Source: Acutalibacteraceae bacterium
Lineage (GTDB): Bacteria > Bacillota > Clostridia > Oscillospirales > Acutalibacteraceae
Direction of reading: 5' to 3'
Length of the DNA: 64,000 nucleotides
Assembly: GCA_045578425.1 (NCBI GenBank)
Contig: JAZNKF010000065.1
Span: forward strand, 10,105-74,104
Shown: positions 3,150-63,460 of the stretch, in pieces
How positions within the stretch are numbered: position 1 is the first letter of the stretch
Layout: each line of letters opens with the position of its first letter
Translations under genes and position numbers: made by a program
Notes under the pieces: generated by a model
The model's input: only the letters and a program-made list of their open reading frames with translations
What the model was told of the DNA's origin: nothing
The model's database searches: none

Positions 3150-3908
3150 ATGAATGTAGCCGTTATCACCGGTGCCTCGTCAGGACTGGGAATGGAATAT
3201 GCCAAACAAGTAGCTTTATTATCAGATGTAGAAGAAATTTGGCTGATTGCCCGTAGTACGGAAAAACTGGTTCAATTAGCCCATTCTTTACCGAACAAAA
3301 AGTGCCGCACGCTTACGTGGGATTTGCAAAGTGAAGAAAGTTTTGCGGAATATCGACGCTTGTTGGAAGAAGAAAAACCAATCGTTCGTTTGCTGATAAA
3401 CAATGCCGGTTTTGGCAAATTGGGAAACGTGTCCGAACTGAACCCCGTAGACCAAGCCGGTATGGTTGACCTAAATTGCCGTGCCCTTACTCTATTCACT
3501 GCACTGACTTTACCGTATATGGCGGCAGGAAGCGGAATTCTTAACGTTTCTTCGATTGCCTCCTTTGCGCCCACCCCGCGCATGACGGTTTATTCCGCCA
3601 CCAAAGCGTACGTTGCCGCTTTTTCCAAAGGATTACGCGAAGAATTACGCCCCCGCCGTATCAACGTGCTAACCGTGTGTCCGGGACCCATGGCAACACC
3701 GTTTTTGGAAACTGCCAAAATTATCGGTGCCGACTCCCCCGCTTTTGAAAACCTTCCGTACTGTCAACCAAAACAAGTTGCTGTTCGTTCTTTGCAGCGC
3801 TTGCTTCACAAAAAAGGGTGGTATACCAACCGTTTTATTTACAAGCTGTACCGTGTGTTAGCCAAATTATTGCCGCACAACCTTGTCATGAAATTCAGCA
3901 AAACCTAA
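3150..3908 (+). CDS. Short-chain dehydrogenase/reductase (classical SDR)
   Basis: ATG 3150 follows RBS AAAGGAGAG. Contains TGASSGLG cofactor motif, NNAG, and YSATKAY (YxxxK). The upstream TTG/ATG at 3114 is a less likely start. Confidence 0.85.
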   Translation: MNVAVITGASSGLGMEYAKQVALLSDVEEIWLIARSTEKLVQLAHSLPNKKCRTLTWDLQSEESFAEYRRLLEEEKPIVRLLINNAGFGKLGNVSELNPVDQAGMVDLNCRALTLFTALTLPYMAAGSGILNVSSIASFAPTPRMTVYSATKAYVAAFSKGLREELRPRRINVLTVCPGPMATPFLETAKIIGADSPAFENLPYCQPKQVAVRSLQRLLHKKGWYTNRFIYKLYRVLAKLLPHNLVMKFSKT

Positions 3909-3947
3909 AAAAAAGAACGCTGCGATTTTTCACAGCGTTCTTTTTTG
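3908..3947. terminator. Bidirectional intrinsic terminator between convergent genes
   Basis: Stem AAGAACGCTG (3913-3922) pairs with CAGCGTTCTT (3933-3942). An A-run lies upstream and a T-run downstream. Confidence 0.6.
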
Positions 3948-3988
3948 CCCTTCTGACCGACCGTTATCTAACGGGTTCCGAGGGCAGG

Positions 3989-4714
3989 TTATTTGTTTTG
4001 TGTGGTAACCGTCGGTATCGTCACCGTCTCCCCTTGCAACAATGTCAATGGGTCTAAATACTTTCCGTTTACTAAAATTTCCAAATGCATGTGCGAAGCA
4101 TCTTTGATTTCCGATGGGACAGCCGATACTTTACCAATAATGTCTCCGACCTTTACCGTATCCCCTACCTTGACTCCTTGTGCGGTCACACCGCAATAGC
4201 GTGAAATACGTTTGCTGCCGTGGTCAATTTCAACCACGTCACCCCACAGCGTATCTTTGGTGATGGTTTTTATTATTCCGTCTGCCACGGCTTTTACCGA
4301 CTGGTTTTCTTTCGCTTCAAAATCCACACCGTTATGGGTGCGCCATTCACCGAGTGTTTCGGAATATTGGTGCGTTTCACTGTAAGAACGCAACACCCGA
4401 TTTGAAACAGGCAACACAAACAAGTCTTTCGATTGTGTTGTTGTGGGTACCGTTGTCGGTACTGTAGTAACCGTAGTGCGGTCATCGGGAACGTTGGTGG
4501 CGGGAATCACCACTTGTTGTACCGCGGAGGTTGTGGTAACCACCGAACTACTTGTGGTACTTTGCGGGGCTTCGGGTATATCCTTTGGCAACGTTCCTAC
4601 AACCGTGGTTACAATCGCGCCGCAAACAGCTATCATACAGGCAGCTAATACCCAATAAAAAACTTTTGGACTTTTCTTTTCTTCCGTTTCCGGCTCAAAA
4701 TCTGGATAGTTCAT
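3989..4714 (-). CDS. Membrane-anchored M23/LytM family metallopeptidase
   Basis: ATG 4714 is preceded by AAGGAGG. One N-terminal TM helix and a Thr/Ser/Val-rich linker lead to a C-terminal LytM domain (HNGVDF...GDVVEIDHG...HMHLEI). The architecture resembles SpoIIQ-type proteins, but that is only inference. Confidence 0.8.
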   Translation of the reverse strand: MNYPDFEPETEEKKSPKVFYWVLAACMIAVCGAIVTTVVGTLPKDIPEAPQSTTSSSVVTTTSAVQQVVIPATNVPDDRTTVTTVPTTVPTTTQSKDLFVLPVSNRVLRSYSETHQYSETLGEWRTHNGVDFEAKENQSVKAVADGIIKTITKDTLWGDVVEIDHGSKRISRYCGVTAQGVKVGDTVKVGDIIGKVSAVPSEIKDASHMHLEILVNGKYLDPLTLLQGETVTIPTVTTQNK

Positions 4715-60669: not shown

Positions 60670-61482
60670 TTATTGTGCTACTTCTAACAATTTTTTGCTT
60701 ACTCTTGCTTGCACATCAATATAATAGGCAAGTTCAGCAGCATTCATATCGTTATTATCCCATTTTTCAAAATCTGAAACTACTTTTGAATAATTACTCA
60801 TATATTCTGCGTATTCACCAAGAAGACTTAAATCCCCCGGATTGGAACGATATTTTTTCATAAAAGCGACATACTCATCCATAAATTTTTCATAACTATC
60901 CATAGCTTTTTTAAAGTCCAAGTCCAATCCATTTTCGCTTTTGGTTGTCGTTGTAGTTTCGTTTAAGATTGTCGCCGTTTTAGTAGTCGTTGTTGTTTTA
61001 GTTGTTGTGGTAGTAGAAGAAGTTGTTTTCTCCTCCTCTGTTATATCGTTTTCCGTTTTGTCTTCCTTAGGAATTTCTTGGCTATTGGATGTTTTTTTGA
61101 AATATAGTTTATCACCATAGTAATCAAAACAAAGTTTGCCATCAACAACGGTACACTTTTCACCGTCGATCATAATATTTTCGTCTGCTTTCAGCCAATT
61201 TACCAAATCTCCATAGCCGTCTTCGTAAAGATACGCTTTTCCGCCATCTTTTAAAATAATACAATAGTCACTTAAATCTTCGTATTCTACAGTATTCCAC
61301 TCTTCAACAGAAAATTTTGATCCCTCACACTCAATAAAATCCACTTTCCATGTGCCTGATAAATCATCCGTTACGAGAGTGGTAGTTGCAGATGAAGGTG
61401 ACAGTTCTCCCCCTTCTTTACCACAAGCTGTCAACAATAACGCTGACATAATTATAGAGCATAATAGCATTATTCTTTTCAT
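60670..61482 (-). CDS. Lipoprotein with central Thr-rich linker, unknown function
   Basis: 270 aa. The lipobox LLTAC is followed by an N-terminal globular domain, a TTTTTKTTTTTKT linker and a C-terminal helical domain. Confidence 0.7.
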   Translation of the reverse strand: MKRIMLLCSIIMSALLLTACGKEGGELSPSSATTTLVTDDLSGTWKVDFIECEGSKFSVEEWNTVEYEDLSDYCIILKDGGKAYLYEDGYGDLVNWLKADENIMIDGEKCTVVDGKLCFDYYGDKLYFKKTSNSQEIPKEDKTENDITEEEKTTSSTTTTTKTTTTTKTATILNETTTTTKSENGLDLDFKKAMDSYEKFMDEYVAFMKKYRSNPGDLSLLGEYAEYMSNYSKVVSDFEKWDNNDMNAAELAYYIDVQARVSKKLLEVAQ

Positions 61483-61563
61483 AAAATCTCCTCCTTCTAT
61501 GTTATGGATTATAACATATATTTATAACATTTGTCAAGGCATAATATTGGTGAGGTGATTTAT

Positions 61564-61752
61564 GTGGAAGAAAAACTCATCATCAATAAAAAGTCTCTAA
61601 AAGGCGAAGACGGATATAAAACTTTTTCTATTCGTATTAAAGACGAAACGGTTGCTAATTTAGACAAGTTATCCATCCAAACGAATCGTTCGCGCAATGA
61701 ATTGATAAACATTCTACTCGATTTTGCCATTAAGAACAGCGAAGTAAAGTAA
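61564..61752 (+). CDS. Ribbon-helix-helix (CopG/Arc-like) small DNA-binding protein
   Basis: GTG 61564 follows GGTGAGGTG. TFSIRIKDETVANLDKLSIQTNRSRNELINILLDFAI fits the beta-alpha-alpha RHH pattern. No partner toxin ORF follows. Confidence 0.55.
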   Translation: MEEKLIINKKSLKGEDGYKTFSIRIKDETVANLDKLSIQTNRSRNELINILLDFAIKNSEVK

Positions 61753-61797
61753 AAAACCGCATCTGCCGCCCATTGGGGACGGCAGCTGCGGTTTTTA
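61749..61797. terminator. Bidirectional intrinsic terminator
   Basis: Stem AACCGCATCTGCCG (61755-61768) pairs with CGGCAGCTGCGGTT (61780-61793) with one mismatch, A6 upstream and T5 downstream. Confidence 0.7.
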
Positions 61798-62460
61798 CCA
61801 AACATACGGAATTAAACGATATTTCACATTTTGCATATATTCTTCATATCCTGCCAGTTCCTTTTTCAAAAACACCTCTTCTTCTTTGATGCGCTTAGCA
61901 ATAATAAACGGGTAAAAGAGAAAAATCACAAACGCGTACAGAGAACCCAAAATAAGCGGCATTGATAAAAATAACAGCAGCGTTGCGCTGTACATGGGAT
62001 GCCGCACCACACGGTATAGACCTGTATCAATCACTTTTTGGTTTTCTTGTACCGCAATGGTACGGCTCAAATACGTGTTTTCCCGCAACACTTCGGCATA
62101 CAAAAAATATGCAAACAAAAACAATACGGCAGCAACCACAACAACCGCTTTGGGCAAGGTGTACCAAGAAAAACGGTGTCCCAATCCCGCCACAACAAAC
62201 CCTGCCACAAACATAAGCCCGCTCAATTTGACAACCAATTGTTGTTCCTTTTGTTTTTCTTTGGCATCCAATCGTTTTTGAAGTAACTGTGGATTTTTAA
62301 GCAGCATGATAAGTCCTGCCGCAAACATTGGCACAAACAAAATTGCCATCAACAACCAACCGTTAAAAAACAAAAGTGTGCCCGCAGGCAAAAACAGTAA
62401 CGCACCGACCAAAATAACACCTAATAAAAACTTGGTAATTGCTTGTACAAATAATTTCAT
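61795..62460 (-). CDS. Isoprenylcysteine carboxyl methyltransferase (ICMT)/phospholipid methyltransferase family membrane protein
   Basis: 221 aa with 5-6 TM helices and the LIDTGLYRVVRHPMYSATLLLFLSMPLILGS signature. Confidence 0.85.
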   Translation of the reverse strand: MKLFVQAITKFLLGVILVGALLFLPAGTLLFFNGWLLMAILFVPMFAAGLIMLLKNPQLLQKRLDAKEKQKEQQLVVKLSGLMFVAGFVVAGLGHRFSWYTLPKAVVVVAAVLFLFAYFLYAEVLRENTYLSRTIAVQENQKVIDTGLYRVVRHPMYSATLLLFLSMPLILGSLYAFVIFLFYPFIIAKRIKEEEVFLKKELAGYEEYMQNVKYRLIPYVW

Positions 62461-62489: not shown

Positions 62490-62816
62490 TTACAAAAGTT
62501 CTTTTAATTCATCAAGAAACGCTTCTTCGCCCCAGGTATTCATCTTAAAGAAAAGGGCTTGACTTCCCCCTGTGGCAATGGCAGACAACCGAATAGGGTC
62601 GTTCCCGTTTTGAAAAAGAACCACGCTTAAACTTACACGATTTCCACCTGTATAGCTGTATCGTTCAAACACACGAACACTGCAACGGGCATCACCGTTT
62701 ATGAAATCGCTTGATTCCTCAAGAGATGCAGAAAAGCTTCCCCCTACAATGCCTTCTTCTATTTTGCTAATCCATTGATTAAAATCGCCATTTAACGTTC
62801 GTTCTAATTTTGCCAT
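62490..62816 (-). CDS. Small conserved hypothetical protein (resembles what I recall as DUF6054)
   Basis: 108 aa, soluble. The family recollection is not verified. Confidence 0.55.
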   Translation of the reverse strand: MAKLERTLNGDFNQWISKIEEGIVGGSFSASLEESSDFINGDARCSVRVFERYSYTGGNRVSLSVVLFQNGNDPIRLSAIATGGSQALFFKMNTWGEEAFLDELKELL

Positions 62817-62874
62817 TATATTTTTATTCCTTTCTTAATCAACACTTGAATAATATTCGATTTCTATAAATTTT

Positions 62875-62903
62875 ATTGTATCATATATAGTTTCAACAAT
62901 CAA
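62875..62903 (-). promoter_or_regulatory. Candidate promoter for the 108-aa gene
   Basis: Read on the minus strand: TTGATT (62903-62898), a 17-nt spacer, then TACAAT (62880-62875). Confidence 0.5.
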
Positions 62904-62924
62904 TTTTTATCTTTGAATTTGGAA

Positions 62925-62948
62925 CAAAAAAGCAAGGCGATGCCTTGC
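62925..62948 (-). terminator. Short hairpin with T-run on the minus strand (possible insulator terminator)
   Basis: Stem GCAAGGC (62932-62938) pairs with GCCTTGC (62942-62948), and the A7 on plus gives T7 after the stem on minus. The stem is only 7 bp and overlaps a plus-strand -35 candidate. Confidence 0.35.
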
Positions 62949-63191
62949 GAAATAACTATTCATTATTTACTATTATAGGAAAAAAAGTAGTTCGGTTACG
63001 CAAGAGTCCAATGTCGAAACCCTGGACAGTACGCCCGAAGCGGGACTTGCTTCTCCCGAAACTACTAACAGTAAAGTATCACAAGAAAAACCTATTGTCA
63101 ATACTTACAGTCACGCTCTGTTTTTTGAAAGGGTTGTACAAATTTTATGCCTTTTGATTTTTGACCTATGTGTTCGAACCCCTACATATTT

Positions 63192-63362
63192 AGTGATATT
63201 GTGCCTACGGCACAGTGATATTTTCGCGTTGCGAAAGTGATATTGAAACCTACGGTTTCAGTGATATTATATTCGCCATAAAACTGGGCGAATATAATAT
63301 CACTCGGCTTTAGCCGAATATCACTGCAAAGCAATATAACTCGCCATAAGGCAAATATAACT
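63192..63362. repeat. Symmetric nested array: AGTGATATT x4 direct, then its reverse complement x4, with a mini-hairpin in each spacer
   Basis: Direct copies start at 63192, 63214, 63236 and 63260. AATATCACT starts at 63296 and 63317, and AATATAACT (1 mismatch) at 63333 and 63354. Spacer hairpins lie at 63201-63213, 63223-63235, 63245-63259, 63305-63316 and 63343-63352. A central perfect 18-bp stem pairs 63260-63277 with 63287-63304. Confidence 0.9.
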
Positions 63363-63363
63363 G

Positions 63364-63396
63364 AAAAAGCACTTGCTATTGCAAGTGCTTTTTTCT
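63364..63396. terminator. Bidirectional intrinsic terminator
   Basis: Stem AGCACTTGC (63368-63376) pairs with GCAAGTGCT (63381-63389), with A5 upstream and T6 downstream. Confidence 0.7.
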
Positions 63397-63460
63397 TGGC
63401 TGTTCCGAACTATTTAGATGCCACTTTGTTCTTTAAAAAATCAATACGAAAAATTACAAT

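Follow-up and report, generated by a model that had tools for sequence, protein, structure and literature searches.

What is the dense array of short repeats that lies in a gap between genes near the end of a 64,000-nucleotide (nt) stretch of an Acutalibacteraceae genome (assembly GCA_045578425.1, contig JAZNKF010000065.1, positions 10,105 to 74,104; the whole stretch is called the window)? The 9-mer AGTGATATT occurs exactly on the plus strand at 63192, 63214, 63236 and 63260, and its reverse complement follows, twice unchanged (63296 and 63317) and twice as AATATAACT, which has one mismatch (63333 and 63354). A reading made earlier from the letters alone (the sequence-only reading) had located all eight copies and had proposed the 3' domain of a branched non-coding RNA, an iteron- or centromere-like array for a DNA-binding protein, or the relic end of a mobile element. 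With both of its arms present, the locus is a full copy of the Gut-1 element, which is conserved in gut Clostridia. The Gut-1 family itself is already known, and the element is a new genomic member of it rather than a new class. New are the two-armed architecture, a long-range helix (P1), the asymmetry of the arms, the placement at the ends of transfer RNA (tRNA) and ribosomal RNA (rRNA) operons, and a conflict between signals of strand.

Two Gut-1-like arrays back to back

An Rfam scan of the window returned a single match, to Gut-1 RNA (RF01706), at 63292-63363 on the minus strand, with 52.9 bits against a gathering score of 50. When the threshold is relaxed the same model also matches the left half, 63191-63272 on the plus strand, at 49.2 bits, just under the gathering score. 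As the matches in the two halves lie on opposite strands, the ladder is a pair of inverted Gut-1-like arrays placed back to back. The half that corresponds to the curated motif, arm A, scores 51.7-63 bits against the model in relatives. The locus has at least three short hairpins with GUGA(A/U)AU linkers between them, the hairpins covary with a score of 0.498 against 0.127 after shuffling (reached in 0 of 500 shuffles), and the genuine homologues come nearly all from metagenome-assembled genomes of human, ruminant and other gut Clostridia.

Gut-1 was described from 43 human-gut metagenome sequences and was originally reported from metagenomes only; it was rated as certainly an RNA and as not cis-regulatory, and no function was proposed (Weinberg et al. 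2010, PMC2864571). A literature search on Gut-1 found no work after that paper, and the motif has been an orphan since 2010. The published consensus, short covarying hairpins and GUGA(A/U)AU linkers in human-gut bacteria, is the one seen here, but the sources are now assembled genomes of abundant gut Clostridia rather than metagenomes. The curated model is arm A alone, whereas the element described here also has an outer hairpin (P0), the helix P1 and an inverted, better-conserved arm B, and is thus roughly tripled in extent. The flanks of the published seed alignment already hold the inverted second arm, which is therefore a trait of the family, previously undescribed. P0, P1, arm B and the placement after tRNA or rRNA operons are all absent from the 2010 description.

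The array is far above chance expectation. Allowing one mismatch, the 9-mer has 31 matches in the window against 13.4 +/- 3.7 after shuffling (0 of 100 shuffles reach 31), and 8 of the 31 are concentrated in 171 nt. The inverted repeat at its centre, 63260-63277 with 63287-63304, is a perfect match over 18 nt, as the sequence-only reading had said, and the small hairpins which that reading saw in the spacers are also as described, save that the one at 63342-63353 has a single mismatched pair, C.A on the plus strand and a U.G wobble when read on the minus strand. A 13-bp hairpin, 63364-63376 with 63381-63393, closes the unit; with an A-run on one side and a T-run on the other, it is terminator-like on both strands, and in either direction a transcript of 63364-63393 would carry a GC-rich hairpin followed by a U-run, the pattern of an intrinsic terminator. 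A terminator scan found 6 sites where 1.1 were expected. No convincing open reading frame (ORF) was found in the gap, 62817-63460, which is gene-free as first described, and the fold energies of the two strands against shuffled sequences have z = -11.5 and -10.5. The features, in the order of the minus strand, followed by a plus-strand site and the upstream flank, are these:

63364-63399, minus: P0, the outer hairpin, 13 bp and GC-rich with loop 63377-63380, adjoining the 3' end of the upstream co-directional gene
63292-63363, minus: arm A, the canonical Gut-1 motif (Rfam RF01706 match)
63354-63362 and 63333-63341, minus: arm A linkers a1 and a2, AGUUAUAUU
63317-63325 and 63296-63304, minus: arm A linkers a3 and a4, AGUGAUAUU
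63342-63353, 63326-63332 and 63305-63316, minus: arm A hairpins H1, H2 and H3
63347-63360, minus: distal strand of P1, UUAUAUUUGCC on this strand, 86% complementary to 63267-63280 and overlapping a1 and H1
63260-63304, no strand assigned: centre, a perfect 18-bp stem with a 9-nt loop at 63278-63286
63192-63268, minus: arm B, four near-invariant AAUAUCACU linkers and three hairpins; on the plus strand, an inverted second Gut-1-like array
63260-63268, 63236-63244, 63214-63222 and 63192-63200, minus: arm B linkers b1, b2, b3 and b4
63245-63259, 63223-63235 and 63201-63213, minus: arm B hairpins hb1, hb2 and hb3
63243-63270, plus: candidate promoter-like site by match to consensus, TTGAAA at 63243-63248, 16 nt, then TG-n-TATTAT at 63265-70, aimed through arm A to P0
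63396-63415, minus: probable relic of a tRNA 3' end, AAUAGUUCGGAACAGCCAAG, directly upstream of P0, by comparison with related loci L014 and L069
63461-63964, minus: upstream co-directional ORF of 167 amino acids, without a Pfam match, its 3' end toward P0

Conserved plan and conserved pairing

A pattern scan with one genome per species gave at least 120 loci, and the family counts that follow are among the matches listed. The loci come mostly from gut and rumen Clostridia: Oscillospiraceae, Acutalibacteraceae, Ruminococcus, Christensenellaceae and some Lachnospiraceae. In 60 clusters GTGATAT copies are followed by ATATCAC copies, and the reverse order never occurs. When loci were oriented with a profile built from 28 seeds, at least 64 complete two-armed elements could be placed unambiguously, with 150-200 bits on one strand against 20-40 on the other, which shows that the two arms are not equivalent. 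The array thus recurs in related gut Clostridia, which the sequence-only reading had set as a check.

The common plan, read on the strand that is minus in the window, is P0, a1, arm A, centre and arm B. P0 has 10-16 bp and is GC-rich and variable in sequence, and it is present at this place in all aligned relatives. Linker a1 is (C)AGUUNUAUU. Arm A consists of H1 (CGCC...GGCG), the mini-hairpin H2, H3 and H4, with GUKNUAU linkers between them; the centre is AGUUUUAU followed by GGCGAAUANA; and arm B has its four AAUAUCACU linkers, with three hairpins of variable sequence between. The linkers of arm B are near-invariant (ATATCAC in 41, 43, 44 and 36 of 45 elements), while those of arm A decay toward P0 (GTGATAT in 25, 31, 16 and 0 of 45) and drift to more U, as GUUAUAU and GUUUUAU. 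Linkers are invariant across distant lineages in which the hairpins change. The heptamers are spaced by 22/22/24 bp in arm B of the window and by 22-26 bp family-wide. In another subfamily both arms have switched jointly to RUGAAAU/AUUUCAY.

Elements are seen at one to a few per genome, and copies in the same genome or contig differ in hairpin sequence (L049, L066). Single-arm relatives also exist. Two-armed elements may stand in pairs: at L066 (1650-1835 and 3498-3696; also L009, ~3830-4060) two lie on one contig, 1.7 kb apart, one with AUGAAAU/AUUUCAU and the other with GUGAUAU/AUAUCAC, both arms and P1 having changed together. Single-arm arrays are tandemly duplicated in units of ~130-240 nt at L110 (1894-2187) and in the Weinberg seed BAAZ01000130.

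Covariation was computed on an alignment of 45 sequences with 500 shuffles. The spacer hairpins and P1 are 97.1% paired against 76.8% when shuffled, and 251 cells show a double change against 67 (0 of 500 shuffles reach 251). If one partner is slid by 1-3 columns, pairing falls to 35-48%, and the halves of each hairpin are 87-96% Watson-Crick complementary against 55-69% when partners are exchanged. All spacers are hairpins, variable in sequence but conserved in pairing. Of the first proposals, that of a non-coding RNA domain comes closest and is partly right: the locus is a Gut-1 member with hairpins that covary strongly in 45 relatives, but it is a whole element and not the 3' domain of a larger RNA.

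In P1, UNUAUUCGCC at a1 pairs with the central GGCGAAUANA. It is 99.8% paired in the 45 relatives, one column pair being AU in 18, CG in 13 and UA in 12, and in other subfamilies the whole helix is replaced, by AAATAAATCC/GGATTTATTT in L094, GATATGAACC/GGTTCATATC in L112 and AAATTCGTTCC/GGAACGAATTT in L066; that of L052 likewise covaries throughout. The outermost linker belongs to P1 and not to any pairing of arm with arm.

The perfect 18-bp stem was found in the window only, among all loci examined. In relatives there is a composite helix in which a4 and the 5'-terminal TNTATTCGCC pair with GGCGAATANA and the first AUAUCAC, whereas in the window H4 is replaced by a second TATATTCGCC, so that the composite of a4:b1 and P1 is reduced to a simple hairpin. 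We infer that the centre of the window is a natural rearrangement that would preserve this composite helix. Kissing between the loops of the two arms was also considered, and loop complementarity is at chance level.

Placement, strand and possible roles

The element follows the 3' ends of genes. Taken in the Rfam orientation, it has a co-directional ORF as its nearest upstream neighbour in 44 of 52 loci, typically with 3-30 nt between the end of the ORF and P0, while the downstream neighbour is mixed (33 co-directional, 19 convergent). A tRNA gene, of many isotypes, is aimed at P0 in 19 of 54 loci, and the position after tRNA-Thr/Tyr recurs in distant lineages. At L044 (2046-2853) the element ends an rRNA operon, in the order 23S 3' end, tRNA-Lys, tRNA-Glu, 5S, tRNA-Asn, P0 and Gut-1. 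L014 and L069 have an intact tRNA ending ...CCAAG directly before a near-identical P0. In the window CTTGGCTGTTCCGAACTATT at 63396-63415, beside P0, resembles a stump of that tRNA and is probably a relic of its 3' end; ARAGORN found no tRNA in the window. Beyond arm B, at 63168-63186, the T-arm-like TGTGTTCGAACCCCTACA is common to the window and L069.

Membership of the family, architecture, covariation and genomic placement are established; what can be said of strand, transcript, ligand and role is read from sequence, and the signals conflict on whether the element is expressed and acts as an RNA on the annotated strand. The reading that we prefer, at a probability of roughly 40%, is tentative: a structured RNA trailer from the minus strand, serving as a docking platform through its heptamers and linked in its role to the points where highly expressed stable-RNA operons end. 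The element would be transcribed as the trailer of the upstream gene, ancestrally perhaps a tRNA operon of which the window would keep the relic only, by transcription that enters or passes the terminator-like P0. Folding would be local, each spacer forming a clamp hairpin and UNUAUUCGCC pairing with the central GGCGAAUANA as P1, on which the inner arm A linker could stack by pairing with the first arm B linker; in the window this would be the 18-bp stem. The heptamers (AUAUCAC in arm B, the degenerate GUKNUAU in arm A) would then be presented single-stranded and at regular spacing between rigid hairpins, as a multivalent platform for a putative sequence-specific factor, protein or RNA, with arm A as a built-in and partly complementary competitor. 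A binder is suggested by linkers that stay invariant across lineages while the hairpins vary, and by the coordinated switch of heptamer in both arms. Since the element is placed where highly expressed stable-RNA operons end, a role is suggested in termination, processing or insulation of 3' ends, or in titration of a factor in step with that transcription. If the heptamers do recruit a factor, the element would be a widespread regulator of the ends of stable-RNA operons in the gut microbiota.

Such a platform has partial parallels. Sponge RNAs of the CsrB/RsmZ type also hold many copies of a short single-stranded motif apart by hairpins, and the tRNA 3' external transcribed spacer sponge of Escherichia coli, 3'-ETS(leuZ), is a by-product of a tRNA operon transcript, as the element would be; the likeness is in a possible mode of action. 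The element differs from these in having no GGA motifs or homology to them, in carrying its motif in linkers rather than loops, and in having a complementary second arm built in.

The evidence on strand and molecule type is divided. RNA from the minus strand is favoured by the wobble pairs of P1 and P0, in which G.U outnumbers A.C by 8:1 and 21:12, and by the loops of P0 in its U-run class, which are GNRA or UNCG in 8 of 11 in this sense and in 0 of 11 in the other. The a4 variant GUGGUAU (13 of 45) is wobble-compatible with AUAUCAC only in this sense, the single-arm elements of L026 and L090 are bounded in this sense by a stop codon and a terminator, and the co-directional genes, the tRNAs aimed at P0 and the rRNA operon of L044 point the same way. 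Terminators beyond arm B occur at equal frequency in both senses and are uninformative on strand.

Weighing against the trailer are loops, wobble pairs, promoters and the pairing of the arms. In the spacer hairpins G.U pairs show no excess over A.C (20 and 16 of ~1,660 pairs). On the minus strand the loops of arm A read UUC, UAC and UUAC, the stable types C-GAA-G, C-GUA-G and GNRA being found there on the plus strand only, and arm B carries stable types on the minus strand, so that one RNA strand cannot explain both arms. On whichever strand reads ATATCAC, the triloops are C-GAA-G (60), C-GTA-G (25), C-AAA-G (22) and C-GCA-G (10), with tetraloops of a GNRA-like type. In most relatives the sequence of H2 is GCGAAGC, and this 9-nt hairpin alone does not fold as RNA. 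At the centre, TTGAAA-16/17-TGnTATTNT is present on the plus strand in 42 of 50 relatives when scored laxly, and in 25 of 47 when both hexamers must have at least 4 of 6 matches. No other promoter-like position recurs in either sense among the relatives scanned, and no promoter for a minus-strand RNA was found. P0 and the U-rich a1 should terminate much of the transcription that comes in. Lastly, the sequence-only reading had paired the eight copies as concentric rungs, and although the complementarity is there, rungs 2/7 and 1/8 are mismatched at the centre, a degeneracy that is kept and not compensated across the family. In the GUGAUAU subfamily pairing of arm to arm is 88.9% against 88.8% when shuffled, the outer rungs being systematically mismatched (88% and 74% complementary) and the inner two 96.8% complementary. 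Of the compensatory changes which that reading had proposed to look for, those in the spacer hairpins are present, and no rung-specific covariation was found. The loop statistics, the scarce wobble pairs and the conserved plus-strand promoter-like site make the element a poor fit to a simple RNA from one strand, and if strand or molecule type differs from the annotation the curated family will need revision.

The alternative that survives best, though unlikely, is plus-strand transcription of arm A, starting at the promoter-like site of the centre and ending at P0, which would serve as a bidirectional terminator. The product would be a small RNA (sRNA) of ~120 nt in which AAUAUCACU-like linkers join hairpins whose loops are of the GNRA or GNA type, arm B being a repeat region upstream of the promoter or a second such RNA directed outward on the minus strand, and the strand given in Rfam would then be wrong. 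It would account for the sole recurrent promoter-like position, for the T-run of P0 on the plus strand and for loops that look optimised 5' to 3' outward from the centre in each arm. Yet the predicted start lies within the central strand of P1, so that the covarying helix could not form, and the 8 G.U pairs of P1 become A.C mismatches on the plus strand. The conserved 9-mer by itself supplies two of the -35 matches, so that the promoter signal exceeds expectation only ~2-fold. There is no usable -35 for an outward promoter of arm B, and an external plus-strand promoter feeding arm B was found at 3 of 51 loci only, fewer than in the opposite direction. Such an sRNA does not require strict abutment to a co-directional upstream gene, and the terminator of L026, a single-arm element, lies on the side opposite to the one needed.

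Less likely again is a passive element in cis, without a dedicated binder: a bidirectional multi-hairpin terminator or insulator that also bars 3'-exonucleases, for strong transcription units. The element is invariably located where genes end, with a strong enrichment behind tRNA and rRNA operons, P0 is terminator-like and the terminator scan is in excess, and transcription arriving from each side would meet, after every hairpin, the U-containing AGUGAUAUU, the arm A linkers drifting further to U. A U-tract, however, needs neither heptamers (GUGAUAU/AUAUCAC) invariant across lineages nor their coordinated switch in both arms; the stems are short, the tracts begin with AG, the gene on the arm B side is convergent in only 19 of 52 loci, and P1 is left unexplained. 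Clusters of repetitive extragenic palindromic (REP) sequences, or bacterial interspersed mosaic elements, and the tandem terminators of stable RNAs are alike in lying in intergenic sites after genes, in their inverted hairpin arrays and in their bidirectional terminator-like character. REP hairpins are conserved in sequence within a genome, run to hundreds of copies and are served by a REP-associated tyrosine transposase (RAYT). The element differs in that its hairpins vary, its linkers are conserved and its copies are one to few per genome.

It is doubtful, more so than either of these, that the element is a dyad-symmetric device in which each arm acts on its own outward 5'-to-3' strand, as divergent AAUAUCACU-hairpin sRNAs or as single-stranded DNA (ssDNA) arrays of exceptionally stable d(C-GNA-G) mini-hairpins where tRNA and rRNA operons end. 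If it were so, gut Clostridia would have a new type of chromosomal element associated with their stable-RNA operons. As regards phase-variable inversion of the segment between the inverted repeats of P1, 0 flipped and 54 standard copies were counted in assembled loci, and a metagenome scan for a flipped arm A gave chance matches only, among the matches listed.

An array of sites on duplex DNA, such as an operator, roadblock, iteron or centromere, is improbable, and this applies also to the earlier proposal of a centromere-like array for the ribbon-helix-helix (RHH) protein encoded nearby. Direct repeats about two helical turns apart (22/22/24 bp, 22-26 bp in the family) in two inverted sets, arm B linkers as invariant as binding sites should be, and the downstream -35 that adjoins the last heptamer in ~10 loci would all suit it. 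The arrays of ParR/parC and of omega heptads likewise consist of short repeats, direct and with helical periodicity, that form two inverted sets, and the heptamer, as TATCACT, fits WATCACW, the heptad to which omega, an RHH protein of inc18 plasmids, binds. Omega heptads are contiguous, and such arrays stand beside rep/par genes on plasmids; the element has no linked rep/par gene or replicon, and its spacers are selected for pairing. Binding to duplex DNA does not explain spacers in which pairing is maintained as the sequence changes, and it gives no role to the long-range P1; arm A is degenerate. The ORF at 61531-61752 does encode a genuine RHH_1 protein (Pfam), but a tblastn search across the 120 related loci found no homologue, matching the window alone. 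No neighbouring protein is conserved, and a plasmid search gave no match to the element.

Least probable is an ssDNA element or mobile remnant, with stable d(C-GNA-G) mini-hairpins as a priming, HUH-nuclease or recombination site, or as miniature-transposon ends or an attachment (att) site: GNA triloops on the outward strand of each arm and the common GCGAAGC of H2, G.U without advantage over A.C, adjoining tRNA genes, arms that are dyad-symmetric yet unequal like the ends of Tn7 or Mu, and a linker that resembles the nick-site core of phiX174/pC194, TG/ATATT, are set against the absence, in neighbour clustering, of any linked gene for a transposase, Rep or integrase, direct repeats of tRNA fragments that are not general, no target duplication seen, hairpins that differ between copies in one genome (L049, L066), a position after tRNA-Thr/Tyr common to distant lineages, and inversion of arm A in 0 of 54; the first proposal of a mobile-element relic is likewise unsupported.

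Other classes were tried and rejected. A clustered regularly interspaced short palindromic repeat (CRISPR) array, already dismissed in the sequence-only reading, would have repeats of 23 nt or more, unique non-palindromic spacers and cas genes, and is at odds with linkers of 7-9 nt, self-complementary spacers and the lack of a cas-like neighbour in neighbour clustering. Ends of a transposon or miniature inverted-repeat transposable element do not agree with copies that differ within one contig and have no recombinase neighbour. For an integrative or att site, the last 40 nt of the tRNA were compared with the far flank in 13 loci and matched no better than cross-locus controls. An origin in phages or plasmids was rejected with no plasmid match and only 1 of 120 viral-contig matches a genuine copy; two unannotated faecal 'Bacteriophage sp.' contigs match the element. 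Repeats of a Type III toxin-antitoxin system (ToxI-like) were rejected as the units differ and no downstream gene is conserved. Partial matches of the heptamer to DnaA boxes, CRP half-sites, box C, LytTR/VirR boxes, the 16S 3' tail and tRNA-His anticodon loops had no supporting context and were dropped.

Neighbouring genes and flanking sequences

The absence of a linked protein is established: when the ORFs lying up to 3.5 kb from 64 elements were clustered all against all, no protein family recurred by the element, with the sole exception of 23S_rRNA_IVP. Its cluster covers 4 of the 64 loci, and six were found by eye. In these six (L008, L010, L023, L104, L106 and L108) the genes for 23S rRNA intervening-sequence proteins (PF05635) start 11-40 nt past the last heptamer, and in most the -35 of the gene abuts that heptamer. 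The proteins are four-helix bundles, also weakly bAvd-like. L104 and L108 are closely related elements which have the PF05635 gene in common and differ in their upstream genes. In the window the other neighbours are a methyltransferase of the ICMT/PEMT family (61795-62460), a DUF6054 protein (62490-62816) and a DUF6591 lipoprotein-like protein (60670-61482); none of these, nor the RHH_1 protein, recurs by the element elsewhere.

A possible separate gene for a small RNA lies just past arm B, at 62925-63101 on the minus strand. It would have TTGACA at 63101-63096, 17 nt, TG-n-TACTTT at 63078-63073, an extended stem at ~62985-63065 and a predicted terminator, GCAAGGCATCGCCTTGC with T6, at 62948-62926; its fold has z = -3.4. 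The candidate has no Rfam match and a weak similarity in one related locus, L069.

In non-tRNA loci (e.g. L104, L016, L007 and L120) a C-rich spacer like CACCCTTT is found 8-13 nt upstream of P0, between P0 and the A-run that follows the upstream stop codon; by eye only, it is loosely like the anti-Shine-Dalgarno tail of 16S rRNA. On the other side, in L007, L018, L033, L048, L064 and L093, the palindrome GCATTTGT-N4-ACAAATGC lies 60-120 nt past arm B, after a long AGAAAGAGAG...CTCTCTTTCT hairpin.

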